Shown here one piece after another: positions 3,627 through 24,308 of a stretch of 64,000 bases of DNA. The translations under genes and the position numbers were made by a program. Positions within the stretch are counted from its first letter, which is position 1. Every line of letters starts with the position of its first letter. The notes below the pieces were generated by a model. It was not told the origin of the DNA and ran no database searches. It saw only the letters and a program-made list of their open reading frames with translations. Source of the stretch: Planctomycetota bacterium (GTDB lineage Bacteria > Planctomycetota > UBA11346); NCBI GenBank assembly GCA_016745075.1, contig JADGDD010000008.1, forward strand, positions 10,678 through 74,677, read 5' to 3'.

Positions 3627-3882
3627 TGGTTCTTTTTTCCTCTGACAATATCCCGTCGTGCAAGCTATCGGCTAGGGCAACATGGTACAAAACACCTCTG
3701 TACGTAGGGTTCGTATGCCAACTGGTTATACATAGGCTGTTTTCAATCGGTCATCTCTTCTCCTCAACTTGCGCACCAAAGCCGTTCTTATAAGGTCTTG
3801 GTTTTCCACCACCTGTAACGATGTGCCTATGGCCTACCGTTACATTACTCTTGGTAGAGAGTCCTACCGAACGGAGACATCT

Positions 3883-4461
3883 ATGTCTAAAAGCATTATA
3901 GGCACCCAAACCGAAAAAAACCTCTTACTTGCTTTTGCTGGTGAATCACAAGCACGCAACCGCTACACCTTCTTTGCCAGTGCTGCAAAGAAAGAAGGCC
4001 TAGTACAAATTGCTGACATTTTTTCCGAAACTGCTGAACAAGAGAAAGAACACGCTAAACGTTTTTTCAAGTTCTTAGAAGGTGGTGATCTACAAATTAC
4101 AGAAACCTTTCCTGCTGGAAAAGTGGGCAGCACTCTTGAAAATCTACGAGCTGCAGCCGCAGGCGAAGAACATGAATGGGAAGAAGTCTATCCAGCATTT
4201 GCTCAAGTTGCTCGTGATGAAGGTTTCCCACAAATTGCTACTGCCTTCGAAGCCATTGCCATAGCAGAAAAACAACACGGCAAACGCTACAAAGACCTTG
4301 CCGATAACCTTGATGCAGGGCAAGTCTTTAAAAGAAATGGACAAGTTGTGTGGCGCTGCCGTAACTGTGGTTACCTCCATGAAGCAGAAGATGCTCCTAA
4401 AGTTTGTCCTGCCTGTTTGCATGCACAAGCTCACTTTGAAATACTAGCCGAAAACTGGTAG
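3883..4461 (+). CDS. rbr: Rubrerythrin (ferritin-like diiron domain plus C-terminal rubredoxin-like CxxC...CxxC)
   Basis: NLLLAFAGESQARNRYTFFA ... EEHEW ... C-terminal RCRNCGYLHE...VCPACLHAQ; start moved to ATG 3883 (MSKSIIGT) inside the longer listed ORF. Confidence 0.9.
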   Translation: MSKSIIGTQTEKNLLLAFAGESQARNRYTFFASAAKKEGLVQIADIFSETAEQEKEHAKRFFKFLEGGDLQITETFPAGKVGSTLENLRAAAAGEEHEWEEVYPAFAQVARDEGFPQIATAFEAIAIAEKQHGKRYKDLADNLDAGQVFKRNGQVVWRCRNCGYLHEAEDAPKVCPACLHAQAHFEILAENW

Positions 4462-4508: not shown

Positions 4509-4551
4509 ATTCTATGAAACAGGCTCACTGTGTAAGCCTGTTTCATAGAAT
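4509..4551. terminator. Bidirectional hairpin between convergent rubrerythrin and glycyl-radical-enzyme genes
   Basis: Perfect 16-bp inverted repeat attctatgaaacaggc / gcctgtttcatagaat with an 11-nt loop, lying between the two stop codons; T-rich flank on the + side. Confidence 0.5.
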
Positions 4552-4558
4552 ATAGATT

Positions 4559-6913
4559 TTAGTTCAAAGTCCGTTCTAACACCTCTCTCTGAACCTTAGG
4601 CGGAAGCTCAACAAAACGTGCGGAAAAACCACCGACTCGTACAATAAGGTTCTGCCATTTCTCTGGTTCTTTCAGTGCAGCCTCAAGGTCTCCTTTGCCA
4701 ACGACGTTAATCATGGCTTGTGGTCCGCCAGAACGAAAATAGACGGCAAGTAGGGCTTCAAATTTTGTACGCGTTTTGGTGACAGTCTCTTTGGAAAATT
4801 TCATATTTTGAGTCGTGCCTGCATGGCAGTCTGTACGCAATGATAACAATGAATTCAAAAAGGCGGTTACGCCGGACTTGTCTGCACCAGGCTGAGGGTT
4901 GTTAGCATTAGCAAGATGATCCCAATCATATCGACCATCAGCAGAAGCCATGGTTTGGCTTCCCAATCCAACATTAGCCTGGTTATTGATCACAACAATT
5001 AAATAGGAAGCAAGCCCAATACGCTGCGCTTGTGCTGCTGTGCTTTCACAACAACGTTCGTGAATACAGGCGGCCATGGCATCTGCCTCTGTATGTTCAT
5101 TTCCATATTTTGGGACCGCTAGCAATTGTTGGCGTATATGTTCATGTCCTTCAAAGTTAACAGCGAGTGCAGACATCAATTCATCTGCACTGATTTTTTT
5201 CTGTTCATACACGAGGTGCTTTATTGCGAGGAGAGAGTCTGCGACGTTTATTTGCCCGTAGGATTCTAGCGTTCCCCCGAGGTGAGCCAAGCCACCATCA
5301 AACATACCTGCACCTGCTTCCAAGCAGTCATCATATAACAAACTCCAAAGTCCATAGGCGCAGTGGTCTGCTACAACTTTATACTCCAATGCCTGTTGAT
5401 CTGCGAGTAACTCTATCCAATAATCCATATTTTGGAAATACATCTTTAACAACTGATCAAAATCAGGGATGTCACGCAGCAAGGCACAAGCCGGCATGTA
5501 GGTTTTTCTCCCTGTATAGGGCTCGGTATTATTATGGAGCATGCATTCTAATATTTTGCTATGATTAAAAACACCAGACGGTGTGCCAAAGCTCTTTTTA
5601 TACAATACATATTCACCACAGCCATAGGGCACATACTGTTCTGCCCATTCTTCTGATACCTGAAATGCTTTTTGTACCGATGGTATATTAACATCATCGT
5701 TGTATAACATCGGGAAGGTGTGTCCTTCCGCGATACTATCCAAGGCATGACTATATAATTCTGGATCTTGGCCAGTATAAAAACGCAGAGACAATTGTGG
5801 AGCTGGCAAGCAAACACGTCTTGTTGCTTCTATGGCCACATGGGCAAAACGATTTGCTGCCTGCTCGTTACGTCGCCCTTTACCACCAATGATAATACGG
5901 TTATCGTAGGGCGCTCCATTATAGTTTATTATGTCCCAAAGGTTTGCACAAAGGTCTAGCGCTTCGGCTTCTGTTAATCGACCAGCTTCCAAATCAGCAA
6001 CAAGAAAATCCCCTAAATATTCATCCATTCGCCCCCATGAATACGTAGCAGAATACACACCATAGAGTAAGGTTAATTGCATCGCCTCATGTAAGGTTTG
6101 AGGAGCATTTTTTGTAATAGCAAGCAAAGCTGTGCGCATCTGCATGCATCCCAAGCGCTGCTGTTCGTCTATACACGTATGTGCGATTAAGCCCGCGTGC
6201 TCTGCTAATGCCACGGCGCAGGTTTTTATTCCATCGAGAGAAATAAGTAGGCCATCATACATGGCCACAGGCTCATTGGCCGCTTCAGCTCGCATTTTTC
6301 TGTGTTGCACATCTGCATATAAACCGGGTAATCCTTTTTTCATTAATTTATCATAGTCAAAGTGTGGGCCGGTATTGCGCACCAAAGGGTGGCCTACACT
6401 TGCTGCCTCCTTGAGAGACAAATTATTAATGGCAGGCATTTCTCGTTTCATTTCTGGAGTCAATGCCGCTTCAAATCGTGCACAGGTCGTTTCTGTTTCC
6501 CAAAAGTCTACAATACCTTGCAATTCTGTTCGTACCGCATCATCTGGCTGGAGGTCTTCTATTTTTTTGTCCAAAATATTTTTATGACAATAATATCCTG
6601 CACCAGGACCAGAGCCAGGACACAATGGTAGAAAACCCAATGCTGGAATGTGATGCTTGGCCGCATTCCATTTATACAATACCGCATCTACGCCCGGCGT
6701 TGCAATGCAGCGACCTGCTAACAAATCATTCGGTTTCACAGGAGATAAAGTTGCTGGATACTGTGCTGCTAGACAACGGGCTTCTCGAATCGCTTTATCT
6801 TCATCAATGTTCGCTTTATAGACAGCGGTGAACTGGCGTTCTACTTGGAATGCATCTTCACAAAATGGATGTACAGCATGCGTAGATACCGTGTATAATG
6901 GTGCGTTTGTCAT
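4559..6913 (-). CDS. Glycyl radical enzyme (pyruvate formate-lyase / PFL2 superfamily), substrate unknown
   Basis: 784 aa; C-terminal glycyl radical motif IVRVGGFSARFVELPPKVQREVLERT; mid-protein GCGE loop consistent with the thiyl-radical Cys/Glu site; RBS GAAGGA before ATG at 6913. Confidence 0.85.
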   Translation of the reverse strand: MTNAPLYTVSTHAVHPFCEDAFQVERQFTAVYKANIDEDKAIREARCLAAQYPATLSPVKPNDLLAGRCIATPGVDAVLYKWNAAKHHIPALGFLPLCPGSGPGAGYYCHKNILDKKIEDLQPDDAVRTELQGIVDFWETETTCARFEAALTPEMKREMPAINNLSLKEAASVGHPLVRNTGPHFDYDKLMKKGLPGLYADVQHRKMRAEAANEPVAMYDGLLISLDGIKTCAVALAEHAGLIAHTCIDEQQRLGCMQMRTALLAITKNAPQTLHEAMQLTLLYGVYSATYSWGRMDEYLGDFLVADLEAGRLTEAEALDLCANLWDIINYNGAPYDNRIIIGGKGRRNEQAANRFAHVAIEATRRVCLPAPQLSLRFYTGQDPELYSHALDSIAEGHTFPMLYNDDVNIPSVQKAFQVSEEWAEQYVPYGCGEYVLYKKSFGTPSGVFNHSKILECMLHNNTEPYTGRKTYMPACALLRDIPDFDQLLKMYFQNMDYWIELLADQQALEYKVVADHCAYGLWSLLYDDCLEAGAGMFDGGLAHLGGTLESYGQINVADSLLAIKHLVYEQKKISADELMSALAVNFEGHEHIRQQLLAVPKYGNEHTEADAMAACIHERCCESTAAQAQRIGLASYLIVVINNQANVGLGSQTMASADGRYDWDHLANANNPQPGADKSGVTAFLNSLLSLRTDCHAGTTQNMKFSKETVTKTRTKFEALLAVYFRSGGPQAMINVVGKGDLEAALKEPEKWQNLIVRVGGFSARFVELPPKVQREVLERTLN

Positions 6914-6916
6914 AAT

Positions 6917-7894
6917 TTATTTCCTTCTGTTTAATTTTATATAACGCCCACCAAGTAGCCATTCACTGATATACAGATTTCCATCTGCATCTGCGGTTAT
7001 GCCATGAGGGCTGTTTAGTATCCCTACTGGTAAATCAGGTGGTTGTAATTCATTCTTTTCATTAAGAGCATTGGGCCAGCCCGGACGTGATACACATTCT
7101 TTTCCATCTGCCAGAGTTGCTACTACCGCATTCTCTGCATCCAAAACGACTAACTGCGCACATAAATCGACTATAATCACATATGTTTCGACTTGAGCAA
7201 ATGCACTTGGGCTCCGAAATTCTTTATGGGTTATTACTGAGTGAAAACAACCCGTACTATCAAATATTTGGACGCGACCATTTCCTCTATCTGCCACATA
7301 GATCAAGGTCTGTTCTACTCTACGCGTATCAATCCAGACGCTATGCGGACAGGCAAAGAGACCTGCTCCTTCGCTACCATTTATACTGCACACATGCTGA
7401 CCGCTCGCACTGAGACAATGGACAACGCCATACCCATAGCCATCTGCTATCCATATGTGTCCAGTTTCTGTATCTACGGCTACGCCGGTTGGTTTAAATT
7501 GTGTGTCATCTGCACTGTACCCACAGTGTTCTGGACCAAAACGTTGGACCACCGCTCCCGTACCCGTACAGACAAGCACTTGACCAATACCATGTTTGGT
7601 TTCATCACCATCTTTATGACCAATATCCGCTACTAAAATGTAATTTTCATTTTCACTCCGCATACAGCATAAGGCGTGCGTTTCTACCACAGGTGCTGCA
7701 ATTTCAGCAACACGTAGAAGCTTTCCTGCGGGACTATAAAAAGACAAGACGGGATCATTAACATCACCAACGACAATCTCACCATCTGCGGTACAAGCCA
7801 TACCATGATGTGAAAAATATTCTGGTTTAGAGGGACGCTGACCCCAATTTTCTTGCCATTCAAAGTTCAGTGGTCCAGCTTGCAATTGAGTCAT
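6917..7894 (-). CDS. NHL-repeat six-bladed beta-propeller protein
   Basis: Repeated blade motifs such as YVADRGNGRVQIFD, HIWIADGYGYGVV, NLYISEWL; start ATG overlaps the upstream PhyH stop (ATGA). Confidence 0.6.
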   Translation of the reverse strand: MTQLQAGPLNFEWQENWGQRPSKPEYFSHHGMACTADGEIVVGDVNDPVLSFYSPAGKLLRVAEIAAPVVETHALCCMRSENENYILVADIGHKDGDETKHGIGQVLVCTGTGAVVQRFGPEHCGYSADDTQFKPTGVAVDTETGHIWIADGYGYGVVHCLSASGQHVCSINGSEGAGLFACPHSVWIDTRRVEQTLIYVADRGNGRVQIFDSTGCFHSVITHKEFRSPSAFAQVETYVIIVDLCAQLVVLDAENAVVATLADGKECVSRPGWPNALNEKNELQPPDLPVGILNSPHGITADADGNLYISEWLLGGRYIKLNRRK

Positions 7895-8697
7895 TGTTCA
7901 TGCCCTACTGCTTGCCCAATAAGCTTCTCTCGCCATGAATTGTTTATCTCATATGGCTGCGCATAGGTATTGCCCGCCTGATCTTCTCCACGTGCAAGGT
8001 AAATGCGAAAGTCGGGATCATTTTCGTGTTGCGTAAAATGACAATCCGCAGAAAAATATCTGAGCGTTAATCCACAACGACGAATCATACTCGTATTGGG
8101 ATTACTGCCATGAATAATTCGGCCATCATGAATAGAACAATGGTTCGGATCTAATTCAAAAGCAACAGCACTATCTTTATCAAAACTACCAGCATCAATT
8201 TCTTCAGCAAAAACCGCATCATCCTTTACAAGGTGATAATTATGATCTGCAAGCAGGTGACTACCTGGGATAACCTGCAAGCACCCATTTTCTTTGAGAG
8301 ACGGGTCTAAAGCCAGCCACACCGTACAGACCGAATCCATACGGTCCAGCATACCAGCCCAATACGCACTATCTTCATGCCATGGAATACGCCGACCCGT
8401 ACCTGCTGGTTTGGTGATGAAATGGGTAGTAAATAGAACAATATTTGGGCCAATCAATTGCTCTACCATATCTAAAACCGTATCATGCAATGCCCACCTG
8501 AATAATTCAGGGAAAAGAAAATGTGGTTTATCCATTTCTTCTGGACGGCCATTATAGATCTCTTTCCATTCTGTAGCGATAGATTCATGATAGCACTGTA
8601 AATCAGTAAAATCTTGCTCAGATAATAATGGTGCTGTTGGTACTATATAACCTTGTTTTTTATAGGCAGCACACTCAGCGGCAGATAAAATTGCCAT
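7891..8697 (-). CDS. Phytanoyl-CoA dioxygenase (PhyH) family Fe(II)/2-oxoglutarate-dependent oxygenase
   Basis: PWHEDSAYW (HxD iron ligands) and a downstream His in IIHGSNPN; ATG at 8697 preceded by AAGGAG (the listed ORF begins at an in-frame TTG at 8700). Confidence 0.75.
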   Translation of the reverse strand: MAILSAAECAAYKKQGYIVPTAPLLSEQDFTDLQCYHESIATEWKEIYNGRPEEMDKPHFLFPELFRWALHDTVLDMVEQLIGPNIVLFTTHFITKPAGTGRRIPWHEDSAYWAGMLDRMDSVCTVWLALDPSLKENGCLQVIPGSHLLADHNYHLVKDDAVFAEEIDAGSFDKDSAVAFELDPNHCSIHDGRIIHGSNPNTSMIRRCGLTLRYFSADCHFTQHENDPDFRIYLARGEDQAGNTYAQPYEINNSWREKLIGQAVGHEQ

Positions 8698-8826
8698 CAA
8701 ATCTCCTTTTCTTCTCTCATCATTATATGAGCCGATAAAAGGGAAATCCTGTCATATTGTGATGAAAAACGACCCTCTTGTGATGTTTGCTTGCCATTTT
8801 AACCTTCCGCACTATCTTTTCGTGAT

Positions 8827-9666
8827 ATGTCCATGCAATTATTTTGGGATGACATCTGCGAACACAGCCCTGGGAATATGCTCCGCTGTGCTCAAGGTTA
8901 TTACACACCTGGATACCGTTTTCAGCAGCACTATCATGACTTTGCTGAATTCTTTCTCATCACAGAGGGTGAAGGTTATCATTACTGCGATGGCCATCGA
9001 TCTCCCTTACGAGCATCTTCCTGCTGCTTTATTCACCCAGATTGTGAACATTCTCTGACCGCTTCTGAAGAGAGCAGCATGTCCATCATCAACGTGGCCA
9101 TAGCTCCTCAATTATGGACCCATATTCACGATCTCTATTTTGATACTGCACAAGACTGGTTTTGGAGCCGCTCCAAAGGTTGTTCTGTTCATCACGTTCC
9201 CGAACAGGCTCGGCGGTCATTTATGGATGCAGTCACTGAATTAGAACAAGACCACTCAAGTCGCCTAGCAGAAGATGCGCTCCTTTTGCATTTTATCAAT
9301 ACGTTCACCACGACCACCACACAAACAAATAGCAATAAAGCACCACAATGGCTACAAGAACTACTGCTGACCATGAACGAACCAAAATATTTCCAAGACA
9401 GCATGGAGGCTATGGTGCGCTTAAGCGAAAAAAGCAGAGAACATATTAATCGAAGTATTCGTACATACTATCAACAAACGGCCACTGAATATATGAATGG
9501 ATTACGCATGCGCTATTCCTGCCGTCGCTTGCTTGAAAGCACTGATAGCATCATGAAGATTGCTCTTGATTGCGGATTTGAATCTCAAGCCCATTTTTTT
9601 CGCCTCTTTAAAAAGACACACCACTGCACGCCACGACAATTTAGAATGACTCGTAAAGTTCTCTAA
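8827..9666 (+). CDS. AraC family transcriptional regulator (cupin-like N-domain plus C-terminal AraC HTH)
   Basis: C-terminal SCRRLLESTDSIMKIALDCGFESQAHFFRLFKKTHHCTPRQFR is a typical AraC-type HTH pair; divergent from the PhyH-NHL-GRE operon. Confidence 0.8.
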   Translation: MSMQLFWDDICEHSPGNMLRCAQGYYTPGYRFQQHYHDFAEFFLITEGEGYHYCDGHRSPLRASSCCFIHPDCEHSLTASEESSMSIINVAIAPQLWTHIHDLYFDTAQDWFWSRSKGCSVHHVPEQARRSFMDAVTELEQDHSSRLAEDALLLHFINTFTTTTTQTNSNKAPQWLQELLLTMNEPKYFQDSMEAMVRLSEKSREHINRSIRTYYQQTATEYMNGLRMRYSCRRLLESTDSIMKIALDCGFESQAHFFRLFKKTHHCTPRQFRMTRKVL

Positions 9667-9721: not shown

Positions 9722-12700
9722 ATGCGTATTCTTACTCTCCTCTTTTTTCTCTGCGGATTATGCTCAGCTTCCGATTGGCCGATGCTCCTGCATGACATTC
9801 AACGAAGTGGCATCAGTGAAGAACAGCCAACATTTCCGTTACACCATAACTGGAGCTATCAACCACTACAGGCTCCAGTACCAGCATGGGACAAACCAGC
9901 TTTACAAGATTATTTTAATGGATTTTCTTCCATACACCACGCACAAGCTTTTAACCGCGCCTACCACAGTATCTGCGCAAATAATAAAGTTTTCTTTGCA
10001 TCGTCTGCTAATGATAGCGTTGTCTGCCTTGATGCTGCCAGTGGCAAAACATTGTGGGTAGCACTCACCAGTGGGCCTATTCGTCTACCACCAACCTTCC
10101 ATAAAGGCTCACTGTACTGTGGTTCTGATGATGGTTTTGTCTACTGCTTTGATGCTAACACTGGAGCACTCTTATGGCGTTCCTGTCCAAGTGCGACCAT
10201 TCTGGCGCAACGCCCCGCTTATTTGCCAGGCAATAAGCGCATTATTTCTCGCATGCCCGTGCGCACTGGTTTTATTATTGATACAGAACAACAAACGATT
10301 TATGGCCAATGTGGTTTATTCCCAGAAGAGAAGGTTATTGCCTTTCAACTTGATCTCAACACCGGAGCAGTTGTGAGCTCCACTCAGGCCAACGCCGCGG
10401 AAGGATCAGTAACACGTATTGGTGATGAAATCTATGCCTCACGTGGACGGAAAAGTTTTATGATTTCTGATAGAACAGGTAAAGAGGTTTTTAAAAGTAA
10501 TAAAACAAAAGGAGCAGGTGTTACCTCTGGCTACGGCACTCTTGCTCTTACTGGCGGTAATGAGCGGAAAGAGCTTATGCTCTTTGATACAGAGAATAAA
10601 AAAATACTTGCTATGTGTACAGGCCTACGCGGTTTATTACTGAAAGACACACTGTATCTCATAGATGGAGCAACCATACAATCTTACAAAATCGCTGATC
10701 TCATACGTTTCCATAAAGAATATAATGACGCTCTCAACGGACCAATTAAACTCACGTGGTCTGATAAAAGCGAGTTGAAAGCGCAACGCAATCTCCAAAT
10801 AGAAAATGCTGTTCTCTGGAAACAACCCTGCACTTCCACCACTGCACTTATTGCCTGCGGATCGACCATCATTACCGGAGCTCCACAGCACATCACGGCG
10901 TTCGACAGCAATACGGGAGCCGTACTCTGGGAGCAACAGGTAGACGGAACCCCCTATTCTCTCGCTTTTTCTCATGGACGTTTATTCGCAAGCATGGACA
11001 ACGGCCATACACTGTGCTTTTCAGCTCAGGATCAAGATCATATTCTTCAAACAGAACAACACGATATAACCGCATTTTCTCCTGTAGATTCCATACAGCA
11101 GTATACCACGAATATCATCAAAGAATCTCCACAGAGCAAAGGATATTGTGTTATTGTCAACCCGAGCACTTGTGAAATAGCTTATGATATTGCCACCCGT
11201 TCTGATATGCATGTACTTTGTCTCATCGATGATGAAGAAGCCTGCTTAACAGCTCAACAACAATTATTGCCGACCGGCTTATATGGCACTCGCATTCACT
11301 ACCTACGCGGATCACTGTCTACTGTTCATATTCAAGATTACATCGCCACGGTTATTGTTAGTGAACAAGCCCTCAGTGATGAGATAGAATCAGAAGCACT
11401 TCGTATTGTTCGCCCAGAAGGTGGAGTCATCTTATGCTTTAATACAAGCACTCCTGCAAACGATAATTGGACCCAACACTCGGATAAAAATATATCATAC
11501 AGCCGTTACCAACGAGGCACACTTGCTGACACAGGAAACTGGAGTCATGCCTATGGTGGACCAGAGGCCACCAGTTGCAGTAATGATGATACCGTTCATG
11601 GACAATTTGAACTGCAATGGTTTGGTGCGCCTGGCCCTGAAAAAATGAATGACCGCCATCACCGCCCAATGCCACCATTGTATGCTCAAGGAAAAATGTT
11701 TGTACTTGGAAATGAGTACCTTTACGGCGTTGATGCATACAATGGAACCATACTTTGGGAACGCCCCGTCCCTGGTTCACGCCGACTTGGTATTATGTAC
11801 GATACAGCCCCAATGATAGCGCATGATCACAGTCTTTTCCTTTCAATCGGAACATCTTGCATTCAGATAGATGCCAACACTGGGGCCACACAACAAGAAT
11901 TTACGCCGCCGCAGACGAATTCCTCCTGGGGGTTTGTTGACCGTTATCAACAACTCCTACTTGGCAGCAGCCAACACAGCAATGCCAGTCTGACAAAAGT
12001 TGGAAAAATCAATAAACTCATGGAGGCAGATAATAGACTTGTTGCCGTAAGCACTCATCTATTTGCCCTTGATCTCAAACATGCAACAAAGAAATGGGAT
12101 CATAATTCAGGGCTTATCGTTAATTCAACTATTGTTCGCAGCGCAAATACGCTCTGCTTTTTAGAATCACGAAATCCAGAGCTGATAACAACAGATGCTG
12201 GTAGATTTGAACTCAATCAACTTGCAGAAAATGCTTCTCTGTATTTTGTAGCTCTGGATATAGAAAACGGACAGGTGCTCTGGGAAAAACAGACCAATCT
12301 TCCTTACAATAATGTGTTCTTTCTGCAAATCGCCAATGATACCCTGCTCGCCAGCGGCTCATATAACCAAGACAAACGTCGTCACTATGGCATGAGTGCT
12401 CTTTCACTGACTGATGGCAGCACGCGTTGGTCTTCCAATTTTGATGAAGGGAAAAAAGGTGGATCACATGGCGAACAATGGCAACACCCTGCTATTGTTG
12501 GCGAAAACATTTATCTGATGCATCACATTATCAGCCTCACAACTGGTACACGTAGCCAAGAGGGTGAAGGTGGCAGGAAATGGCGCAAAGGACATGGCTG
12601 CGGTACTATTTCCATGTCTAACAATGCCATATTTTACCGTGGCCAATGTATTACTGACCTACAAACGTGGAACCAAGAACGCATCTTCCGCGGCAATAAA

Positions 12701-12826
12701 CCAGGCTGCTGGATCAACCTTATTCCCGCAGGTGGCCTCTTGCTGATGCCGGAAGCCAGTGCTGGTTGCTCTTGCTCTGTACAAGTGCAAACGTCTATGG
12801 CATTGCGACCAGTGGGTCACAAATAA
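9722..12826 (+). CDS. Secreted PQQ-like beta-propeller repeat protein (BamB/PQQ-repeat family), ~1034 aa, multi-domain
   Basis: N-terminal signal peptide MRILTLLFFLCGLCSA; recurring propeller motifs (DG.VYCFDANTGALLW, ITAFDSNTGAVLWE, LYGVDAYNGTILWE); central degenerate Rossmann-like segment; paralog of 27528-30551. Confidence 0.65.
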   Translation: MRILTLLFFLCGLCSASDWPMLLHDIQRSGISEEQPTFPLHHNWSYQPLQAPVPAWDKPALQDYFNGFSSIHHAQAFNRAYHSICANNKVFFASSANDSVVCLDAASGKTLWVALTSGPIRLPPTFHKGSLYCGSDDGFVYCFDANTGALLWRSCPSATILAQRPAYLPGNKRIISRMPVRTGFIIDTEQQTIYGQCGLFPEEKVIAFQLDLNTGAVVSSTQANAAEGSVTRIGDEIYASRGRKSFMISDRTGKEVFKSNKTKGAGVTSGYGTLALTGGNERKELMLFDTENKKILAMCTGLRGLLLKDTLYLIDGATIQSYKIADLIRFHKEYNDALNGPIKLTWSDKSELKAQRNLQIENAVLWKQPCTSTTALIACGSTIITGAPQHITAFDSNTGAVLWEQQVDGTPYSLAFSHGRLFASMDNGHTLCFSAQDQDHILQTEQHDITAFSPVDSIQQYTTNIIKESPQSKGYCVIVNPSTCEIAYDIATRSDMHVLCLIDDEEACLTAQQQLLPTGLYGTRIHYLRGSLSTVHIQDYIATVIVSEQALSDEIESEALRIVRPEGGVILCFNTSTPANDNWTQHSDKNISYSRYQRGTLADTGNWSHAYGGPEATSCSNDDTVHGQFELQWFGAPGPEKMNDRHHRPMPPLYAQGKMFVLGNEYLYGVDAYNGTILWERPVPGSRRLGIMYDTAPMIAHDHSLFLSIGTSCIQIDANTGATQQEFTPPQTNSSWGFVDRYQQLLLGSSQHSNASLTKVGKINKLMEADNRLVAVSTHLFALDLKHATKKWDHNSGLIVNSTIVRSANTLCFLESRNPELITTDAGRFELNQLAENASLYFVALDIENGQVLWEKQTNLPYNNVFFLQIANDTLLASGSYNQDKRRHYGMSALSLTDGSTRWSSNFDEGKKGGSHGEQWQHPAIVGENIYLMHHIISLTTGTRSQEGEGGRKWRKGHGCGTISMSNNAIFYRGQCITDLQTWNQERIFRGNKPGCWINLIPAGGLLLMPEASAGCSCSVQVQTSMALRPVGHK

Positions 12827-14887: not shown

Positions 14888-15766
14888 TTACAGAGACGAC
14901 ACTTGCAATTGTTGGCGATAGGACTTTGGCGTTTGCCCCACTTCTTTTTTGAAGATCCGAGAAAAATAATTACTGTCATTGAAACCACTCGCAAAAGCGA
15001 TCTTGGTAATACTGTCATTCGTTGTGGTTAATAATGCTTTTGCATGATTAAGACGTAAGCGATTCAGGTACATAATGGGGGTCACACCATAGTCTGATTT
15101 GAAACGACGAATAAATTGATTAACAGATAAATGAGCTGCATCTGCTAACTCCGCCAAAGAAATATCTCTGCTGTATTCGCTTTCAAGGAGGGCAACGCTT
15201 TCTGCTAAAGCCATTAACGGGTTTGCCTCTGAATTTTCTTCTGAAAAGATACTACAAAGTTCAACAATTAACCGTTGCATCGCAGCAACTTTCCTTGCCT
15301 GAGGTGCTTGCGTGTGCCGAATAGGTTCAGTGAGATCGACACAGAGCGGCTTGATCATTTTCAATTGTTGAGCACTTAGTCTTAAACGATTATAATTACG
15401 TTCCTGTTCTCGATACACTGGCTCCAAAATAAAAAGCGCATGATAACCAGACAATGCAGTAAGATCATAGGTGTGTGCTTGTAACCACGTTGGTAAAAAC
15501 ATGCAGTTAATGATTTCCATATCCCGTGAATGGGCAAAGCCATGTACTTGCCCTGGCGCTATTGCAAAAACATCTCCGGCAGCAATCGGCACTAGGCCCC
15601 ACTCCGTTTGATGTTGGCCACTACCACGACAAACGATAACCAATTCGCTAAAATCATGGCGGTGAATGGGGTAATCATCACGCGGAAAACGCCAAAAGGA
15701 AGCTTGCACCGGAGCTGCTGGATGAAGCCCCTGTTTCTCTAAAGCAATAGTCGGAATCTGATGCAT
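14888..15766 (-). CDS. AraC family transcriptional regulator (cupin plus HTH)
   Basis: C-terminal LSVNQFIRRFKSDYGVTPIMYLNRLRLNHAKALL...ITKIAFASGFNDSNYFSRIFKKEVGQTP; divergent from the PhyH/URO-D-like operon. Confidence 0.85.
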   Translation of the reverse strand: MHQIPTIALEKQGLHPAAPVQASFWRFPRDDYPIHRHDFSELVIVCRGSGQHQTEWGLVPIAAGDVFAIAPGQVHGFAHSRDMEIINCMFLPTWLQAHTYDLTALSGYHALFILEPVYREQERNYNRLRLSAQQLKMIKPLCVDLTEPIRHTQAPQARKVAAMQRLIVELCSIFSEENSEANPLMALAESVALLESEYSRDISLAELADAAHLSVNQFIRRFKSDYGVTPIMYLNRLRLNHAKALLTTTNDSITKIAFASGFNDSNYFSRIFKKEVGQTPKSYRQQLQVSSL

Positions 15767-15864: not shown

Positions 15865-16620
15865 ATGCCAGCACTCACGAAAGCTCAGATAACGGATTAC
15901 CATGAACATGGTTTTGTTATGCTGGGAAAAATTATGGATGATGCAACCTTAGATGTCATTCGCTCAGAAGAGCAGAGGCTCATGGCAACCGTTGGTTCTG
16001 CCCATGATGAAGATCTTGCTAACCGCAGTGTCTTCATTTCTTTATGCCACCATCATAGTGCTGCGTTTCGTAACGTTGCCACGCAAGGGCCACACCTTGA
16101 TGCGGTAGAACAAATTGTTGGCGAAGACTTCTTACTATGGTACACGCAGTTTGTTATAAAACATCCAGACACGGGGGATGCTAAGAGTGAGTTTCCGTGG
16201 CATCAAGATAATGGCTATGGCGCAATTACTCCCGATAATAACGTAACAGTTTGGATTGCTCTTGATGACGTGACCGAAGAAAACGGATGCGTATGGGTTG
16301 TGCCCGGCAGTCATAAACAGGGGCTACTTGACCATCAGAAAAAAAATGACTCATGGCATTTACATTTAGACGTCGAGACCGATGGTATTCCTGCCATTAT
16401 GAAAGCAGGCGAAGCGGTGATGTTTAGTGGATTAACCCTGCACCGTTCAAAATTAAATCACACGAATGCTCCACGCCGCGCTATGTTTATGGAATACGCA
16501 CATGCCAGTAGTCACTTAATTGAAGATCAGCAAGCACTTATCCATAAATCTCACACATGGATGGTACGTGGACAATTGCCCCTAGACATTCCCAATCAAG
16601 CACCGGAGACACAATCATGA
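15865..16620 (+). CDS. Phytanoyl-CoA dioxygenase (PhyH) family Fe(II)/2OG oxygenase
   Basis: FPWHQDNGYG (HxD), VVPGSHKQG, GLTLHRS; RBS AAGGAA upstream of ATG 15865. Confidence 0.75.
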   Translation: MPALTKAQITDYHEHGFVMLGKIMDDATLDVIRSEEQRLMATVGSAHDEDLANRSVFISLCHHHSAAFRNVATQGPHLDAVEQIVGEDFLLWYTQFVIKHPDTGDAKSEFPWHQDNGYGAITPDNNVTVWIALDDVTEENGCVWVVPGSHKQGLLDHQKKNDSWHLHLDVETDGIPAIMKAGEAVMFSGLTLHRSKLNHTNAPRRAMFMEYAHASSHLIEDQQALIHKSHTWMVRGQLPLDIPNQAPETQS

Positions 16621-17678
16621 CATGCACTCAAACACCCGTTGAGGAGATGCAAAAACGTATTCTCCATGCTTACGACCATCCAGATGAGCAAGCCTGTTTT
16701 TATAGTGGTAATGTAGAACGCACCGGTAGTACCCGCTTAGATCATCTACCCTATTGGGACTGGAGTTGCCAACCTGCCCGCTCTGTCCCAAGCAATACGA
16801 CTTGCCTTTTTCCACTCGCACTGAATTGCCCACAAATACACACCACCGAAGGGAAACTATGGGTCAATCCAATTTTTGAAGACGAGGACGAAGAAGATTT
16901 TATTCTGGAACTGCCAGATATACGTAGCGGTTTTGGCGACACCATTTTACAAGAAATGGCGACAATGGCTCGTGATTTACCCGCGGGTGAAACCATACGT
17001 GAAGTTGATATTCAATCCTCACTGGGCATTGCTGAACTCGTCTGTGGGCAAAATTTGTATATAGCCTTACTAGAAGAACCTGAAGCCATCAAAAAAATGC
17101 TCACACGCATTACTGATTTCGTTATTGATTTTGTTCACGAAATGCGCCGTGTTTGTGGACCACGTTTAAACGGTGCAGGCTTTCCTTTTATTTGGTCAGA
17201 CCAACACAGCACGCTTGTCAGTGATGATACACTGACCTTAGTTTCTCCACAGCAACATCTGGAATTTAGTCTCCCGTACGTGAATCAATTTGCTGATGCC
17301 TGCGGCCCCATTCATTACCATTCTTGCTCATGGTATGAACGCTTTTTTGATAATATTAAACAAGTCCGTAATGTCCGCACCTATAATTGGAATACCGGTA
17401 ACAGCGACGATCCACATCATATTATTCGAGAGTTTTCTGGACGAGCTGTACTCGCGCCACACATCTGTAAAGATATGCATCTCAGCAACGATGTTGCTCG
17501 TTGGGGCCATTCTTTCTCCGACGAAGTAGATCTACTCAGCTATGTGTTAGATGGCATGCTCGATAATACCAGCTTTCATTTCTGGCTTGGTGAATTTGAT
17601 GAGAAGCCAGATGTACTTGAACGGATGTATGATATTTTGCATGAACGAGGGTACTCACCACAAGCACAACTCGGCTAA
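16617..17678 (+). CDS. Uroporphyrinogen decarboxylase (URO-D)-like family protein, function unknown
   Basis: Fold-level similarity to URO-D/MtaA-like proteins and to the paralog at 46534-47562; ATG 16617 overlaps the PhyH stop (ATGA) with GGAG 8 nt upstream, so the listed start at 16557 is rejected. Confidence 0.55.
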   Translation: MTCTQTPVEEMQKRILHAYDHPDEQACFYSGNVERTGSTRLDHLPYWDWSCQPARSVPSNTTCLFPLALNCPQIHTTEGKLWVNPIFEDEDEEDFILELPDIRSGFGDTILQEMATMARDLPAGETIREVDIQSSLGIAELVCGQNLYIALLEEPEAIKKMLTRITDFVIDFVHEMRRVCGPRLNGAGFPFIWSDQHSTLVSDDTLTLVSPQQHLEFSLPYVNQFADACGPIHYHSCSWYERFFDNIKQVRNVRTYNWNTGNSDDPHHIIREFSGRAVLAPHICKDMHLSNDVARWGHSFSDEVDLLSYVLDGMLDNTSFHFWLGEFDEKPDVLERMYDILHERGYSPQAQLG

Positions 17679-17721
17679 TATTATCCATTCACTTTCCTTG
17701 GCAGGCCATAGGGTCTAAAAC

Positions 17722-18546
17722 ATGGATATATCTGTCATTTTTACGACCTACAATCAGCCACGCTGGCTGGAGCTCGTGCTCTGGGGTTTTTCTATCCAGA
17801 GCCACAGTGATTTTGAGATTGTCATTGCTGATGATGGCTCCAAGCCAGAAACCGCTGCCCTCATTGCAGATATTCAGAAAAAAACAGCACTCACCATCCA
17901 ACATATTTGGCATGAAGACAATGGCTTTCAGAAATGTAGTATTCTGAACAAAGCCATTGTTGCGGCCAAACATGATTACTTGGTTTTTACTGATGGCGAT
18001 TGTATTCCTCATCCTGATTTTTTAAAAACACATAACAAACATGCTCAAAAAAATGCATTCCTCTCTGGCGGCTACTTCAAATTGCCGCAAGACATAAGTG
18101 AGGCTATTACCATTGATGAAGTACTCCAAGGCTTACCCTGTTCCCCTGCGTGGCTGCGCAGCAACGGCATGTCTTGGACCCCAAAAATGTTAAAGCTACA
18201 GGCCAAAGGGGCCTCATCATCTCTACTAGATATGCTGACAACCACCCGCCCAACGTGGAATGGCCATAATGCTTCCACATGGAAAGAATACGCGCTAGCG
18301 ATAAATGGTTTTGACGAGCGTATGCAATATGGCGGCCAAGATCGAGAATTTGGTGAGCGCCTTGAAAACATTGGCGTACGCGGCAAACAAATTCGACACA
18401 AAGCATGTTGTGTACATCTACACCATAAACGTGGTTATGCGACACCTGAGAGTATTGCCAAAAATAAAGCGATACGCGCAGACACGGTTTCGCAAAAAAT
18501 AACGAAAACGGAACATGGCATCGAACAGATGCTCACCGCTCCATAA
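17722..18546 (+). CDS. Glycosyltransferase family 2
   Basis: N-terminal ISVIFTTYNQPRWLE...FEIVIADDGS...VFTDGDCIP (GT2 DxD-type motifs). Confidence 0.75.
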   Translation: MDISVIFTTYNQPRWLELVLWGFSIQSHSDFEIVIADDGSKPETAALIADIQKKTALTIQHIWHEDNGFQKCSILNKAIVAAKHDYLVFTDGDCIPHPDFLKTHNKHAQKNAFLSGGYFKLPQDISEAITIDEVLQGLPCSPAWLRSNGMSWTPKMLKLQAKGASSSLLDMLTTTRPTWNGHNASTWKEYALAINGFDERMQYGGQDREFGERLENIGVRGKQIRHKACCVHLHHKRGYATPESIAKNKAIRADTVSQKITKTEHGIEQMLTAP

Positions 18547-18552
18547 ACAATA

Positions 18553-19599
18553 TTAGAGGTAGAGGCTCTCCCACTGCTCAATAACCTGTGCAGCAGATAC
18601 GGCTTCTAAGGTATTTGCTGCTGCCCACGCCTCTGGTCCTGGCGCACAGGCTTCAATACTTGTTTGCGCAGCAATCAGCACAGGGCTTGTTTCTGCACGT
18701 GGGCAGAATAAACGCGGATCTGTCTGGCCAAATAAAACCAACAGAGGACAGCCAACCGCAGCCGCAATATGGGCAGGGCCTGTATCAACACTCACACAAC
18801 AATCAGCCATTTCCATTACAGCCAACAGGCGGCGAATCGGCAACTGATCAGCAACGGAAATGACCTGCGGCAACTGCACCTGCGCCGCCAAAGATTCTGT
18901 ATACTCTTGTTCTGGTGGCGCACCACAAAGTAGCACAACGGCATCTGGGTTACTTAAGACCATATGACGCATCACCTGTACCCAGCGCTCATCTGGCCAA
19001 AACTTGACATTGCTAGACCGGTCTCGGGCACCCGCTCTCATGGTTTTTTTATTACCTGGCTGAATTAAAATAATAGGTCGGTCTTGCCAGCCATTCTTCT
19101 CCAACCAAGCACGACACTCTCTGCGTTCTTCTTCACTCACAACTAATTGGGTGCCAGTGACCGAACACGGAGGCCAAGCTGTCTTAACCGTCTCTTTAAG
19201 AGCCAAACGTTGCCAATGCTCTATAGTATGTTCATCCTGATGGCGCTCATCGACCAAAGAATCTACCGCATCTTGTTTGAGGTCATAGCCAGCCCGTTCT
19301 AACAAACGGTAGACTTTGGGCATTTCTTCCAACACCCACACGGGACTGTTCCCACGTTCTTTGAGAGATGTGACCAACTGTTTCTGTTCACTACTCAAAA
19401 GATATGGCGTTTTTCGAGAACCAATCACATAGACATCTCGAACCCACGGGCAATTGGCATAGAGTACCTTGGTCCACGCCCCAGAGCCAACCACATCACA
19501 TGGCTCCCCGCTACGCTCTGCGAGCATACGCAAAAGCGGCGTTAACATCACCATGTCTCCAAGCGCACCAAAGCGCACTACTAGGGGGTTGTTCGGCAT
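18553..19599 (-). CDS. Glycosyltransferase family 9 (LPS heptosyltransferase-like)
   Basis: N-terminal RFGALGDMVMLTPLLRML and overall GT9 organisation. Confidence 0.75.
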   Translation of the reverse strand: MPNNPLVVRFGALGDMVMLTPLLRMLAERSGEPCDVVGSGAWTKVLYANCPWVRDVYVIGSRKTPYLLSSEQKQLVTSLKERGNSPVWVLEEMPKVYRLLERAGYDLKQDAVDSLVDERHQDEHTIEHWQRLALKETVKTAWPPCSVTGTQLVVSEEERRECRAWLEKNGWQDRPIILIQPGNKKTMRAGARDRSSNVKFWPDERWVQVMRHMVLSNPDAVVLLCGAPPEQEYTESLAAQVQLPQVISVADQLPIRRLLAVMEMADCCVSVDTGPAHIAAAVGCPLLVLFGQTDPRLFCPRAETSPVLIAAQTSIEACAPGPEAWAAANTLEAVSAAQVIEQWESLYL

Positions 19600-19799
19600 T
19601 CTTTCGGCCTCCGCTTTTGTCTGGGCGCACTCTAGCGGCTCCTCCAGCTTTTCCAGTGCAAGTCAGAGCGCAGCCTTGCCTTATGAGTAGTCAGCTCATG
19701 ATGAGCAGCCATTCAAAACCATGATTTTTACTGGTGTTGAGCCATACCTGCCCAGCATTCAGACTATAAACGATTCCCACGAACAGCAAAGAATACCCT

Positions 19800-20939
19800 A
19801 TGACTCGAGACATTGCACCAGATAAAAAGCTCCTCTTCAAAGTCCATATGCCAAAATCGGTAGATGGCCCCTTGCTAGAAACTTTACATAGCGGCTTTAT
19901 TGGCCAAGGCACCAAAGTTGACGAATTTGAAGAAAAACTTCGTGCTTACTTCAACCATGAACATGTAGTTACCGTGAACTCTGGTACTTCTGCTCTCCAA
20001 TTGGCACTTCGTCTCGCCAATGTTGGTCCTGGCGATGAAGTCATCTCAACTCCTATGACTTGTACGGCCACCAATATGCCCGTTCTCGCTATGGGGGCAA
20101 AACTGGTCTGGGCAGACAGCAATCCTGTAACCGGCTTGATTGATGCGGAATCTATTCGTTCTAAAATTACAGAAAAAACAAAAGCCATTATTATGGTACA
20201 TTTTGGCGGATTGCCTTGTGATATTGATGGCATTAATGCCCTCGCACAAGAACATCAGATCAAAACAATTGAAGATGGTGCACACGCCTTTGGCGTTTCC
20301 TACAAAGGTAAAAAAGTAGGCTGCCATTCTGATTTTGTTATGTTCTCTTTACAAGCAATTAAACATATCACCACCATAGATGGCGGACTCTTATTCTGCA
20401 AGAATGCAGAAGATTACAAACGTGCTGTACTCTTACGTTGGTACGGCATTGATAGAAATGCCAAACGCAAAGAATTCCGTTGCGAAGAAAATATTGCTGA
20501 ATTTGGTTATAAATTTCATATGAATGATATTTGTGCAGTCATTGGCATAGAGCAATTAAAATATGTTGATGATTTACTGCAACGCCACCGTGATAATCAA
20601 CTCTTTTATGATGAGCGCCTCAAAGCGATTCCTGGCATTCAACTCATACCCAAACCATCAGACATCGTCTCATGCCCGTGGTTATATGTCTTACATGTCA
20701 CCGATGGCAGACGTAATGATTTTATGGCATGGATGGATACACAAAACGTTATGGCCTCCCGCGTACATGAACGCAACGATATCCACGATGCCTTCGCTGA
20801 AAGCAACTGTCAACTGCCTGGTGTTGATACATTTAATGCCAGCCAAGTTTCTATTCCGGTTGGCTGGTGGATTACCGACGACGACCGTGCCTATATTGCG
20901 GATAAAATAGAAGAGTTCTCGCAAACTTTCGTCCAATAA
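19800..20939 (+). CDS. DegT/DnrJ/EryC1/StrS family PLP-dependent sugar aminotransferase
   Basis: GDEVISTPMTCTATNMP...KTKAIIMVHFGGLPCDIDGI...IEDGAHAFG...FSLQAIKHITTIDGG with the PLP lysine present. Confidence 0.85.
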   Translation: MTRDIAPDKKLLFKVHMPKSVDGPLLETLHSGFIGQGTKVDEFEEKLRAYFNHEHVVTVNSGTSALQLALRLANVGPGDEVISTPMTCTATNMPVLAMGAKLVWADSNPVTGLIDAESIRSKITEKTKAIIMVHFGGLPCDIDGINALAQEHQIKTIEDGAHAFGVSYKGKKVGCHSDFVMFSLQAIKHITTIDGGLLFCKNAEDYKRAVLLRWYGIDRNAKRKEFRCEENIAEFGYKFHMNDICAVIGIEQLKYVDDLLQRHRDNQLFYDERLKAIPGIQLIPKPSDIVSCPWLYVLHVTDGRRNDFMAWMDTQNVMASRVHERNDIHDAFAESNCQLPGVDTFNASQVSIPVGWWITDDDRAYIADKIEEFSQTFVQ

Positions 20940-20968
20940 GTTCTCTCTAGCCACACAAGGTTCCCGCC

Positions 20969-21778
20969 ATGTCCATGCAACATATTATTATTACTCGTTT
21001 CAATATTCCGATGGTGGAACACACCGAAGATAAAAACGGTCAGAAAACACAGACTGATGCATGGATGGAAGAACGTTTTGCCCTGTTTGAAAAATTCTGC
21101 ATGCCGTCTATCATGGCACAGACCAACCAGAACTTTCAATGGGTGGTATTATTTGGCGCACATACCAGCCAACAATGGCGAGACCACATTACAGCAATAG
21201 AAGAACGCTATGATCGATTTACACCACTCTTTATGGATCACCCCAATATTGCTGAACCAATTAATGAGCTCGTTACTGATACCACCAAAAAAGTGCTCAC
21301 AACTCGTTTAGATAACGATGATGCGCTTCATAAAGAATATGTTGAAGTTATTCAGAAAAATGCTGAGTCCAAACAAGACAATTGTTTTCTGCTGTTCCGT
21401 TTTGGCTATTCCTTTAATGGAGAAATGGCAGTTGTTCGTTCACACAAATACAACCCCTTTAGTACTTTTATTGAATGCATTAACGATGAGAGAGCACCCA
21501 TTCAAACGGCTTATTGCAGCAGACATGGCCGCACCCATGAGGTAGCGCCTCTGCATTACATTAAAGAACGCCCTTTTTGGCTGGTTGGCATTCACGATAG
21601 AAACGCGGTTAATTTACACGTTGGGGAGACCAGAGATTATTCACTAAGCAAACCCAAAGATGTGCTCAAACTTATTCGTAATAGATATCTTCGCCCACTG
21701 CGTAGGTATTTTTGGCCAAAAGCTTACAGACAAACCTATACCTTAGCAGACATTCAAAAAGAATTTGGTGTGAAATAA
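20969..21778 (+). CDS. Putative glycosyltransferase (rhamnosyltransferase-like family)
   Basis: N-terminal HIIITRFNIP... resembles the putative rhamnosyltransferase family; placement inside a glycosylation cluster; weak assignment. Confidence 0.45.
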   Translation: MSMQHIIITRFNIPMVEHTEDKNGQKTQTDAWMEERFALFEKFCMPSIMAQTNQNFQWVVLFGAHTSQQWRDHITAIEERYDRFTPLFMDHPNIAEPINELVTDTTKKVLTTRLDNDDALHKEYVEVIQKNAESKQDNCFLLFRFGYSFNGEMAVVRSHKYNPFSTFIECINDERAPIQTAYCSRHGRTHEVAPLHYIKERPFWLVGIHDRNAVNLHVGETRDYSLSKPKDVLKLIRNRYLRPLRRYFWPKAYRQTYTLADIQKEFGVK

Positions 21779-21800
21779 AAGAACTGACTCAGACGTTCAT

Positions 21801-23872: not shown

Positions 23873-24080
23873 ACGTTCATGGAATACTTGCAGCTCTACC
23901 CATTGGCGCAACGCCCTGTTTTTGCAACCCTCTCCCACACCATCCAAAAACAACCGAACAGAAGGAGTCAAAACTCAAGCAAAACCAAAAGACAAACGAA
24001 CAGGCGGAGAGAAGGGGCCAAAGGCCCCGACCGACCGCCGAGATACGTTTTTGCTGATACAATGGGCAAAGCCCATCAGC

Positions 24081-24171: not shown

Positions 24172-24247
<76 letters not shown>

Positions 24248-24308
24248 ATATCTATTTTCAATTTAGCGTTTTAAGAACACTTGTAACCGCTTCTCAATAA
24301 CACTGTAG

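Follow-up and report, generated by a model that had tools for sequence, protein, structure and literature searches.

A PhyH-family dioxygenase, an NHL propeller and a glycyl radical enzyme encoded together in a predicted AraC-controlled operon of a Planctomycetota bacterium

The operon and its control region

Here, we describe a predicted operon of a Planctomycetota bacterium that combines an O2-dependent dioxygenase, a beta-propeller protein and a glycyl radical enzyme (GRE) behind a divergently transcribed AraC-type regulator. The operon lies in a stretch of 64,000 nucleotides of contig JADGDD010000008.1 (assembly GCA_016745075.1, positions 10,678 to 74,677 of the forward strand), hereafter the window; positions given without a locus number are those of the window, and other loci are referred to by L numbers. 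Three genes follow each other on the minus strand: one for a PhyH-family Fe(II)/2-oxoglutarate (2OG) dioxygenase (7891-8697, 268 amino acids (aa)), recognised by Pfam PF05721, its iron triad and a structure model; one for a six-bladed NHL beta-propeller (6917-7894, 325 aa), recognised from the open reading frame (ORF) map, Pfam NHL and a structure model; and one for the GRE (4559-6913, 784 aa), recognised from the ORF map, Pfam and conserved catalytic motifs. An AraC/XylS-family regulator gene (8827-9666, alternative start 8833) is transcribed away from them on the plus strand, its product having an N-terminal cupin (Pfam AraC_binding, 1.7e-15) and a C-terminal HTH_18 domain (1.8e-18). The initial annotation had described the three minus-strand genes as tightly coupled and the regulator upstream as divergent, and both descriptions hold: the PhyH gene ends and the NHL gene begins within a shared ATGA, the NHL stop codon TAA is followed by three nucleotides ('att') and then by the GRE ATG, with AAGGAA upstream of it, and the regulator carries both AraC-type domains. 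The arrangement is not a chance pattern of ORFs, since each of the proteins has hundreds of homologues. The PhyH gene starts with TTG at 8700 in the ORF list; the ATG at 8697, with AAGGAG 5 nt upstream, is the likelier start and agrees with the public gene call of 268 aa, in which the AraC gene starts at 8833.

Past the GRE gene, the operon runs into a predicted hairpin with a 20-bp stem (4509-4551, minus strand), which begins 8 nt beyond the GRE stop codon and is shared with a rubrerythrin gene (3769-4461, Pfam) on the opposite strand that converges on the operon. Its folding energy was -29.5 kcal/mol (z = -8.4), and none of 200 shuffled sequences was as stable. The consensus terminator scan did not call this hairpin, which was seen by direct folding, because it has no T-rich tail, a feature the scan requires. 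Consensus scans of the PhyH-NHL-GRE interior gave no convincing terminator or promoter. Taken together, the overlap, the 3-nt gap, the uninterrupted interior and the terminal hairpin predict that the PhyH, NHL and GRE genes form a single closed transcription unit ending at the hairpin.

The 129-bp control region between the PhyH and AraC genes (8698-8826, minus strand with respect to the operon) contains a direct repeat, a TATAAT box and a ribosome-binding site. The repeated sequence CATCACAA stands on the operon strand at 8778-8785 and 8757-8764, with a spacing of 21 bp, and its second copy ends 29 bp upstream of the TATAAT box (8722-8727). A consensus promoter scan found no good -35 element in the control region, as expected for an activator-dependent promoter. 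The layout of repeat and TATAAT box is that expected of an AraC/RhaS-type activator and supports the repeat as a predicted operator. An Rfam search over the whole window returned two tRNAs only, with no riboswitch or other RNA element.

The encoded proteins

The GRE contains a PFL-like domain (PF02901, 8e-98, residues 26-648) followed by a Gly_radical domain (PF01228, 4.8e-19, residues 669-768). Within the latter, the radical-glycine motif reads R759-V-G-G762-F; R759, V760, G761 and G762 were invariant in the 25 family members aligned, and RVGG aligns with the RVAG of HpzG, glycerol dehydratase (GD), YbiW and PflD. The cysteine loop G431-C432-G433-E434 was likewise invariant in 25 of 25 members, with C432 and E434 aligning to C441 and E443 of Escherichia coli YbiW, both named as catalytic in a 2026 review of GREs (PMC13450708). 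According to the same review, the C-x-E motif is the mark of GRE 1,2-eliminases and of newer 'isomerases', and its glutamate hydrogen-bonds and deprotonates a hydroxyl of the substrate (PMC13450708). The window protein is full length and retains all of the more than 100 family-invariant residues. The 784-aa protein, which had been annotated as a GRE from the outset, can on this sequence evidence be regarded as a bona fide member of the C-x-E (1,2-eliminase/isomerase) type that looks catalytically intact.

Its subfamily is a different matter. The best NCBIfam model, TIGR01774 (PFL2-3 subfamily), scored 296 bits against a cutoff of 678, and the equivalogs (HpsG/HpfG, HypD, CutC, PFL and others) reached at most 246 bits against cutoffs of at least 1000. 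The best matches in the PDB scored about 200 bits (HpzG 8iof, 201; GD 1r8w, 197; CutC, 193). By these scores the window GRE is placed in a large clade that matches no characterised subfamily. Among the candidates tested, more than 1000 proteins matched it at E <= 1e-20, none with a name more specific than 'pyruvate formate lyase family protein'; the named sources were Verrucomicrobiota, Opitutaceae, Limnochordia, Atribacteria, Marinimicrobia, Ignavibacteriaceae and Cloacimonetes, and in a scan of genome contigs the sole relative was from a Bacteroidales metagenome-assembled genome.

Two groups of characterised GREs are instructive for comparison. The 1,2-eliminases (glycerol/propanediol dehydratases, HypD, HpyG/HpzG, CutC, IslA/IseG and HpsG/HpfG) share the common fold, the glycine motif and the C-x-E loop with the window GRE and are its best sequence matches; they differ in that the window GRE falls far under every curated cutoff, that GD His164 is not conserved in its family, an invariant R179 standing four residues upstream instead, and that microcompartment genes are absent. 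The enzymes of E. coli anhydroglycolysis, YbiW and PflD, are also PFL-like with a C-x-E loop, and they act on sugar derivatives and are encoded in sugar-uptake loci, in line with the carbohydrate context of the window clade described below. They are the 1,5-anhydroglucitol-6-phosphate and 1,5-anhydromannitol-6-phosphate C-O lyases, which open a non-hydrolysable ring ether beside a carbinol under anaerobic conditions (PMC13450708). Yet they match the window GRE at only about 165-170 bits and lack the family-invariant residues R179, R339, R347, Y404, Y435, E550, Y552, H618, N643/N644/N647, H697 and Q702. Their loci also differ, with a PTS and aldolases in E. coli as opposed to ABC or MFS uptake, kinases and reductases in loci of the window clade, and, unlike the window operon, they have no PhyH or NHL gene. 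In E. coli, pflD-pflC is flanked by the AraC-type regulator gene yijO (L097, 5996-10318).

The PhyH protein matches Pfam PF05721 at 2.3e-27 (97 bits against a cutoff of 22). H107-E-D109, H196 and R207 were invariant and R206 nearly so among 27 homologues, and the iron triad and the 2OG-binding arginine were kept in all 14 GRE-linked PhyH proteins examined, among which two PhyH subtypes occur. The 2-His-1-carboxylate iron site on which the dioxygenase assignment hinged is thus present as H107-x-D109 and H196, together with R206/R207, and by every sequence criterion the protein is predicted to be an intact Fe(II)/2OG oxygenase. Its AlphaFold model (pLDDT 95.4) had ThoJ, SyrB2, SnoK and human PhyH (2a1x) as top Foldseek matches, with EvdO2 also matched; PDB entry 6ZYK was identified as ThoJ among them. 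The sugar-tailoring oxygenases EvdO1, EvdO2 and AviO1 and the hydroxylase ThoJ are the closest solved structures and sequences, and from them it is clear that members of the family can use glycosides. These enzymes, at 20-24% identity, however, carry out biosynthetic tailoring in antibiotic clusters of actinomycetes, whereas the window PhyH is encoded in a catabolic-looking, AraC-regulated operon.

As a separate observation, E. coli carries ybiW-ybiY (GRE and activase), then ybiV (sugar phosphatase) and then ybiU (PDB 2dbi, 2csg) on one strand (L096, 2797-8512, corresponding to K-12 857796-863511), and this could parallel the pairing of a GRE with an oxygenase-like protein. For YbiU (Gig2-like/DUF1479), which we take to have a 2OG-oxygenase-like fold, homology to the window PhyH was not detectable here: BLASTP was insignificant, hhalign gave a probability of 0.5%, and YbiU was absent among the 50 Foldseek matches listed. 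The parallel is kept as a lead.

The third protein matches Pfam NHL at 1.4e-13 and was modelled (pLDDT 93.8) with six blades and 24 propeller strands. TRIM-type NHL domains took Foldseek ranks 1-5, and the top enzyme, at rank 6, was the peptidyl-alpha-hydroxyglycine lyase PAL (3fvz, E = 2e-13, TM 0.67), with Vgb (virginiamycin B lyase) matched as well. Across 40 homologues, H73, H184 and H297 were invariant on the inner strands of blades 2, 4 and 6, as were Y153, R203, H159, D90, D151 and E311, and all of these residues are kept in the NHL proteins of the PhyH-linked loci L016 and L039. Presumably the Zn(His)3 site of PAL with its tyrosine and arginine is the relevant comparison, as the window residues follow each other in a similar order and at similar spacing, this being a likeness of order and spacing and not a residue-level superposition. 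Peptidylglycine alpha-amidating monooxygenase (PHM plus PAL) joins a hydroxylase to a six-bladed propeller of the NHL type, as PhyH would be joined to the NHL protein. The differences are that PHM is a copper hydroxylase in a peptide context, whereas the window has an Fe/2OG PhyH, separate cytoplasmic proteins and a carbohydrate context, and that sequence similarity between PAL and the window protein is limited to about 100 residues. Homologues of the NHL protein are present in aerobic actinomycetes and in unrelated settings as well.

Related loci and their carbohydrate context

From a metagenome scan with at least 544 matching GRE-family loci, 80 further loci were analysed using tblastn and ORF clustering, and counts are given over 79 loci or over 76 non-redundant ones. 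In 13 of the 76, a PhyH gene is found no more than 10 kb from the GRE gene (nine within 3 kb, four at 3-10 kb), and the density of PhyH genes falls from 2.6 per 100 kb in the inner 3 kb to 0.77 per 100 kb at 3-10 kb. A divergent AraC gene was found in 28 of 79 loci. At least seven gene orders join PhyH to the GRE family. The AraC gene may be divergent from a GRE-activase-NHL-PhyH operon (L016, L017) or from a PhyH-GRE-activase operon (L058, L082); PhyH may lie upstream of AraC-GRE-activase on the opposite strand (L089), be co-directional with AraC (L020) or convergent on it (L021, L023); PhyH, with or without NHL, may converge on GRE-activase (L039, L061); or it may be part of a long sugar operon 6-9 kb from the GRE gene (L029, L042, L046, L047). 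A propeller gene adjoins PhyH repeatedly, being of the NHL type in the window, L016 and L039 and of the SGL type in L042, L046 and L047, while in L029 an SGL gene lies two genes from PhyH in the same operon.

For the GREs of the PhyH-linked loci, the most similar named proteins come from Opitutaceae, Marinimicrobia, Ignavibacteriaceae and Cloacimonetes, and this spread across phyla indicates that the link between PhyH and GRE has been kept or re-made across lineages. Recurrence in combination with so many rearrangements is a signature of functional linkage. The synteny is, therefore, not confined to this genome, as those 13 loci have PhyH, in some cases along with an NHL or SGL propeller, near a member of the GRE family.

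The regulators and their presumed binding sites follow a similar pattern. Among the AraC proteins compared, the window AraC is closest to the divergent regulators of L058, L082 and L089, which are PhyH-linked GRE-activase loci (120-135 bits). Other GRE-linked regulators scored 100-114 bits and most regulators of PhyH-only loci lower, with L095_b about equal to the GRE-only ones. Of the 26 AraC-divergent intergenic regions in related loci, 7 contain the pattern ATCA[ACT]-N16-[AGT]TCA[ACT], where its frequency across all loci would predict about 0.5, and a near-identical ATCAATATAGTG...AAAAGTCAT element is present in L003, L005 and L100. Regulator similarity and operator pattern together suggest that a regulator and operator of the GRE family stand before the PhyH gene, placing PhyH-NHL inside the regulated unit. 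The AraC control proposed in the initial annotation gains support from the recurrence of the 21-bp-spaced repeat, a predicted operator, before related operons. More broadly, an operator-like element with the rough consensus ATCAATA-N14-[AG]TCA[ACT] was seen 5' of GRE operons of different lineages in L003 (9918-9943), L005, L100, L014, L021, L022, L023 and L032, and it could serve to define the regulon.

The genes around members of the GRE family are overwhelmingly those of carbohydrate metabolism. They encode sugar transport (ABC systems with SBP_1, permeases and a MalK-type ATPase, the MFS_2 symporter and RhaT), glycoside hydrolases (GH92, GH38, GH43, GH2, GH13, GH94, GH78, GH106, GH127 and GH5) and further proteins such as LacI, nucleoside-hydrolase-like proteins, FGGY, ROK and PfkB kinases, GFO/IDH/MocA and aldo-keto reductases, and URO-D-like proteins. 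From these neighbours we infer that the substrate of the GRE clade is a carbohydrate-derived small molecule. An extended locus round more distant GRE members (L029, 112-14246; L042, 150-12367; L046, 7971-22103) contains genes for a nucleoside-hydrolase-like protein, a sugar ABC binding protein, SGL, PhyH, GH92 (with GH43 in L029) and GFO/IDH/MocA, an AraC gene divergent from GRE-activase, and an aldo-keto reductase gene, and looks like an undescribed catabolic pathway. URO-D-like (uroporphyrinogen decarboxylase/methyltransferase-type) genes occur in the window (46534-47838) and near the GRE gene in L003 (6857-7894) and L098 (12266-13381), and may hint at methyl-group chemistry on the substrate.

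In the library searched we found no paper that pairs a GRE with the phytanoyl-CoA dioxygenase family, and no such pairing is given in the 2026 GRE review (PMC13450708). The earlier remark that the PhyH-NHL-GRE combination was not recognised as a described pathway is in keeping with this. A search for literature on GH92 or on Verrucomicrobia and polysaccharides returned nothing relevant. The components belong to known superfamilies; their recurrent wiring, with an O2-dependent dioxygenase and a propeller joined to GRE-activase operons, is new so far as we have found.

Possible functions and genomic setting

The cluster is best explained as a catabolic operon that is induced by its substrate, is activated by AraC and forms part of a widespread family of carbohydrate-linked clusters round a new C-x-E clade of GREs. 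Such an operon poses an oxygen paradox, since glycyl radicals and the [4Fe-4S] clusters of their activases are destroyed by O2, on which the dioxygenase depends. Alternative oxic and anoxic routes would be a natural resolution. In the reading that we favour, with a probability of roughly 40%, the operon provides an oxygen-complementary dual route, in which PhyH and the propeller in air, and the GRE without air, act on one hydrolysis-resistant bond of a sugar-derived molecule.

The target would be a C-O, or possibly C-N, bond beside a hydroxyl group of a small molecule derived from a sugar. Candidates are anhydro-alditols, sugars carrying O-alkyl or O-methyl groups, and deoxy sugars substituted in some other way. 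AraC would sense the sugar derivative, upon which both branches would be expressed. With O2, PhyH would hydroxylate the carbon adjoining the heteroatom and the coupled propeller would handle the labile hydroxylated product, following the hydroxylate-then-lyse logic of PHM and PAL; for loci with an SGL propeller, a lactonase-type step would be equally possible. Without O2, the GRE would rely on a radical-SAM activase from another part of the genome for its activation and would then abstract the carbinol hydrogen, with E434 as the base, and the same leaving group would be expelled, as in CutC, IslA, YbiW and PflD. Oxygen would thereby pick the competent branch post-translationally. The gene identities, catalytic motifs, operon structure, operator-like repeat, recurrent synteny and carbohydrate setting are observed; what kind of substrate is involved, the propeller's part as a lyase and the either/or logic of the two routes are read from gene context and resemblance and are put forward as a proposal.

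Pairs of oxic and anoxic solutions for one bond are known, with TauD-type Fe/2OG dioxygenases and the GRE IslA acting on C-S bonds, and oxygenases and CutC acting on choline. In these pairs, O2-dependent hydroxylation and glycyl-radical elimination reach the same products, as is proposed here. The known routes, however, are generally found in different organisms or at separately regulated loci, whereas in the present case they would share one operon and one regulator, and do so recurrently. If true, this would to our knowledge be the first case of oxic and anoxic solutions to one bond cleavage in one operon, and would illustrate a way in which bacteria at redox interfaces guard against swings in oxygen.

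For one substrate class, the 1,5-anhydro-alditols, there is precedent for both halves. In addition to the GRE route (PMC13450708), aerobic Sinorhizobium hydroxylates 1,5-anhydromannitol at C-1 by means of an oxygenase that is still unidentified (PMC12441222). An aerobic enzyme that removes anhydro-alditols is wanted medically (PMC12441222), and a link to the window PhyH is speculative. A bolder form of the proposal would have the operon be oxygen-agnostic towards one ether or amine bond, with PhyH possibly of the type of the sought aerobic anhydro-alditol C-1 hydroxylase or an oxidative sugar de-alkylase, and with the GRE representing a new substrate class of radical C-O cleavage; we consider this form doubtful, though not far-fetched. 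GREs are central anaerobic catalysts, and whole clades of them are still without an assigned function (PMC13450708). The present clade is large and sits in sugar-utilisation loci of abundant uncultured bacteria, so that its substrate is probably an environmentally common carbohydrate derivative, and the AraC sensor, two enzymes that can be screened for a shared substrate and a PAL-like bacterial propeller family all offer handles for finding it.

Several observations weigh against the dual route. The closest GRE relatives (54-59% identity) are encoded without PhyH or NHL, from which it follows that the PhyH-NHL module is accessory and not obligatory. In L003 and L005, where the surroundings encode rhamnosidases (GH78, GH106), a sulfatase and a giant propeller protein of the PQQ type, AraC is divergent from GRE-activase; in L001, it is divergent from a GRE gene followed by one for an MFS_2 sugar symporter; L098 has GRE-GH127-URO-D-AKR with RhaT and ThuA and no activase; and L099 and L100 have GRE-activase. 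In the genomes examined, several of which are from PVC-group bacteria, pairs of divergent AraC and PhyH genes are, moreover, very common cassettes, often in several copies per locus; this raises the chance of incidental adjacency, some of which is to be expected, the comparison being one without a matched control. No radical-SAM GRE activase was found in the 64 kb of the window, searched by tblastn, or in a 10-kb flank adjoining its start. Gene context gives a class and identifies no compound, and the PAL-like active site of the propeller is a lead from a residue pattern. Special kinship of the window GRE to YbiW/PflD, on which the anhydro-sugar idea would lean, was rejected, as bit scores were not above those of other eliminases and the family-specific residues are unshared. 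Nor was there specific support for an anhydrofructose/anhydromannitol pathway: the GFO/IDH/MocA protein matched TM0312 best (236 bits) as against 66 bits for anhydrofructose reductase, and the pathway is retained as an illustrative candidate only. The aldo-keto reductase of the cluster best matches YhdN/IolS-type proteins.

Among the other explanations, a sequential microoxic pathway comes closest to the favoured one, although it is still unlikely. Here, PhyH and the propeller would act on a different step from the GRE, for example ahead of it, to take off a substituent (a methyl, amino or sulfate-bearing carbon), or after it, to work on its product, and both would be needed together at very low O2. 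The genes being co-transcribed and tightly packed, to the extent that activase, NHL and PhyH are only a few bases apart in L016, is compatible with such a pathway, as are the sugar-tailoring EvdO1, EvdO2 and AviO1 among the neighbours of PhyH and the aldo-keto reductase and GFO/IDH/MocA genes conserved nearby, whose products could follow an oxidative step. By established GRE biochemistry, however, the O2 lability of glycyl radical and activase cluster makes simultaneous flux hard to sustain, and most family loci, the closest relatives included, manage without PhyH. The linkage of PhyH is patchy over the GRE tree, which would suit an incidental juxtaposition, in which an AraC-PhyH(-propeller) cassette recombined with an AraC-GRE unit via their related regulators and the two serve different compounds. 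Tandem AraC-PhyH arrays without a GRE do exist: three divergent pairs stand in a row on a metagenomic contig (L095, 5299-10698); Kitasatospora viridis has three PhyH and three AraC genes with an NHL homologue, GFO/IDH/MocA and ThuA (L011, 503-6990); one pair lies beside a rhamnosidase gene (L093, 2591-4338); and the window itself has a second pair 5 kb from the first (AraC 14888-15766, minus strand; PhyH 15865-16620, plus strand). The occurrence of NHL homologues in aerobic actinomycetes and unrelated contexts points the same way. We nevertheless regard chance adjacency as rather improbable. It has to be set against 13 of 76 loci with at least seven gene orders and two PhyH subtypes, concentrated less than 3 kb from the GRE gene, and against linked GREs that resemble those of Cloacimonetes, Marinimicrobia and Ignavibacteria, beyond the PVC bacteria; furthermore, the window AraC is closest to regulators of PhyH-GRE-activase operons and not to those of most PhyH-only loci (L095_b excepted), and the operator-like repeat of GRE loci stands before PhyH.

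The remaining explanations each take one enzyme out of the scheme. Were the GRE a non-functional passenger without an activase, the operon would effectively encode an aerobic PhyH-propeller pathway. An activase gene adjoins the GRE gene in 44 of 79 related loci and not in the window, where none was seen in the 64 kb and 10-kb flank, an absence on which the initial annotation did not remark, and two IS110-family transposase genes about 6-9 kb past the GRE gene suggest local rearrangement. Still, the GRE is full length with every family-invariant residue in place, including G762, C432 and E434; L001 and L098 are intact loci that likewise have no adjacent activase; the search did not extend to a further 107 kb or so of the source contig or to the remaining genome; and activases encoded elsewhere in a genome are common, as exemplified by E. 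coli PflA serving TdcE. A passenger GRE is accordingly given little weight. Least probable of all, in our judgement, is that PhyH is no substrate oxygenase but an O2 scavenger or sensor that protects or gates the GRE, or a non-oxidative, metal-dependent isomerase or epimerase. The epimerase SnoN and the carbocyclase SnoK, both net non-hydroxylating, are among its structural neighbours, and a role in protection suggests itself where PhyH is linked to an O2-labile enzyme in lineages classed as anaerobic. Against this stand the strict conservation of the iron triad and the 2OG-binding arginine, the need of SnoN and SnoK themselves for O2 and 2OG, and the dedicated partner propeller, which argues for real product chemistry, and the literature search found no precedent for such a role.

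Regarding the setting of the operon, the window also encodes the rubrerythrin already mentioned, a Fur-family regulator, a 1523-aa protein resembling pyruvate:ferredoxin oxidoreductase (PFOR) and subunits of respiratory complex I; anaerobe-type proteins together with complex I are compatible with an organism that lives at fluctuating oxygen. The PFOR-like protein (49943-54514) is a fusion with POR_N, PFOR_II, POR and several 4Fe-4S domains and is unusually long for a PFOR. The complex I genes form a row at 55284-63703, in which a gene for a fused 20-kDa/30-kDa (NuoB/NuoC-like) subunit, 411 aa long, precedes NuoD-, NuoH-, NuoL- and NuoM-like genes. Beyond the start of the window by about 1.5-4.5 kb, past a histidine kinase gene, lie the two IS110-family transposase genes (348 aa each; L002, 18415-21451), which could have to do with a local rearrangement or with the loss of the activase gene.

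Large PQQ_2/BamB-like propeller proteins of 1007-1075 aa are encoded at 9722-12826, directly downstream of the AraC gene, and at 27528-30551, and a homologue (28% identity) is encoded near the GRE gene in L005 (2312-5539). The two PhyH proteins of the window are about 34% identical over 162 residues, and the second PhyH gene is overlapped by an ORF of 373 aa without a Pfam match (16557-17678). An envelope glycosylation block extends from there to 23971 (16557-23971), with genes for GT2, a GT9 heptosyltransferase, a DegT aminotransferase, a rhamnosyltransferase-like protein, a polysaccharide deacetylase and GT4, and is followed by two tRNA genes at 24175-24384.

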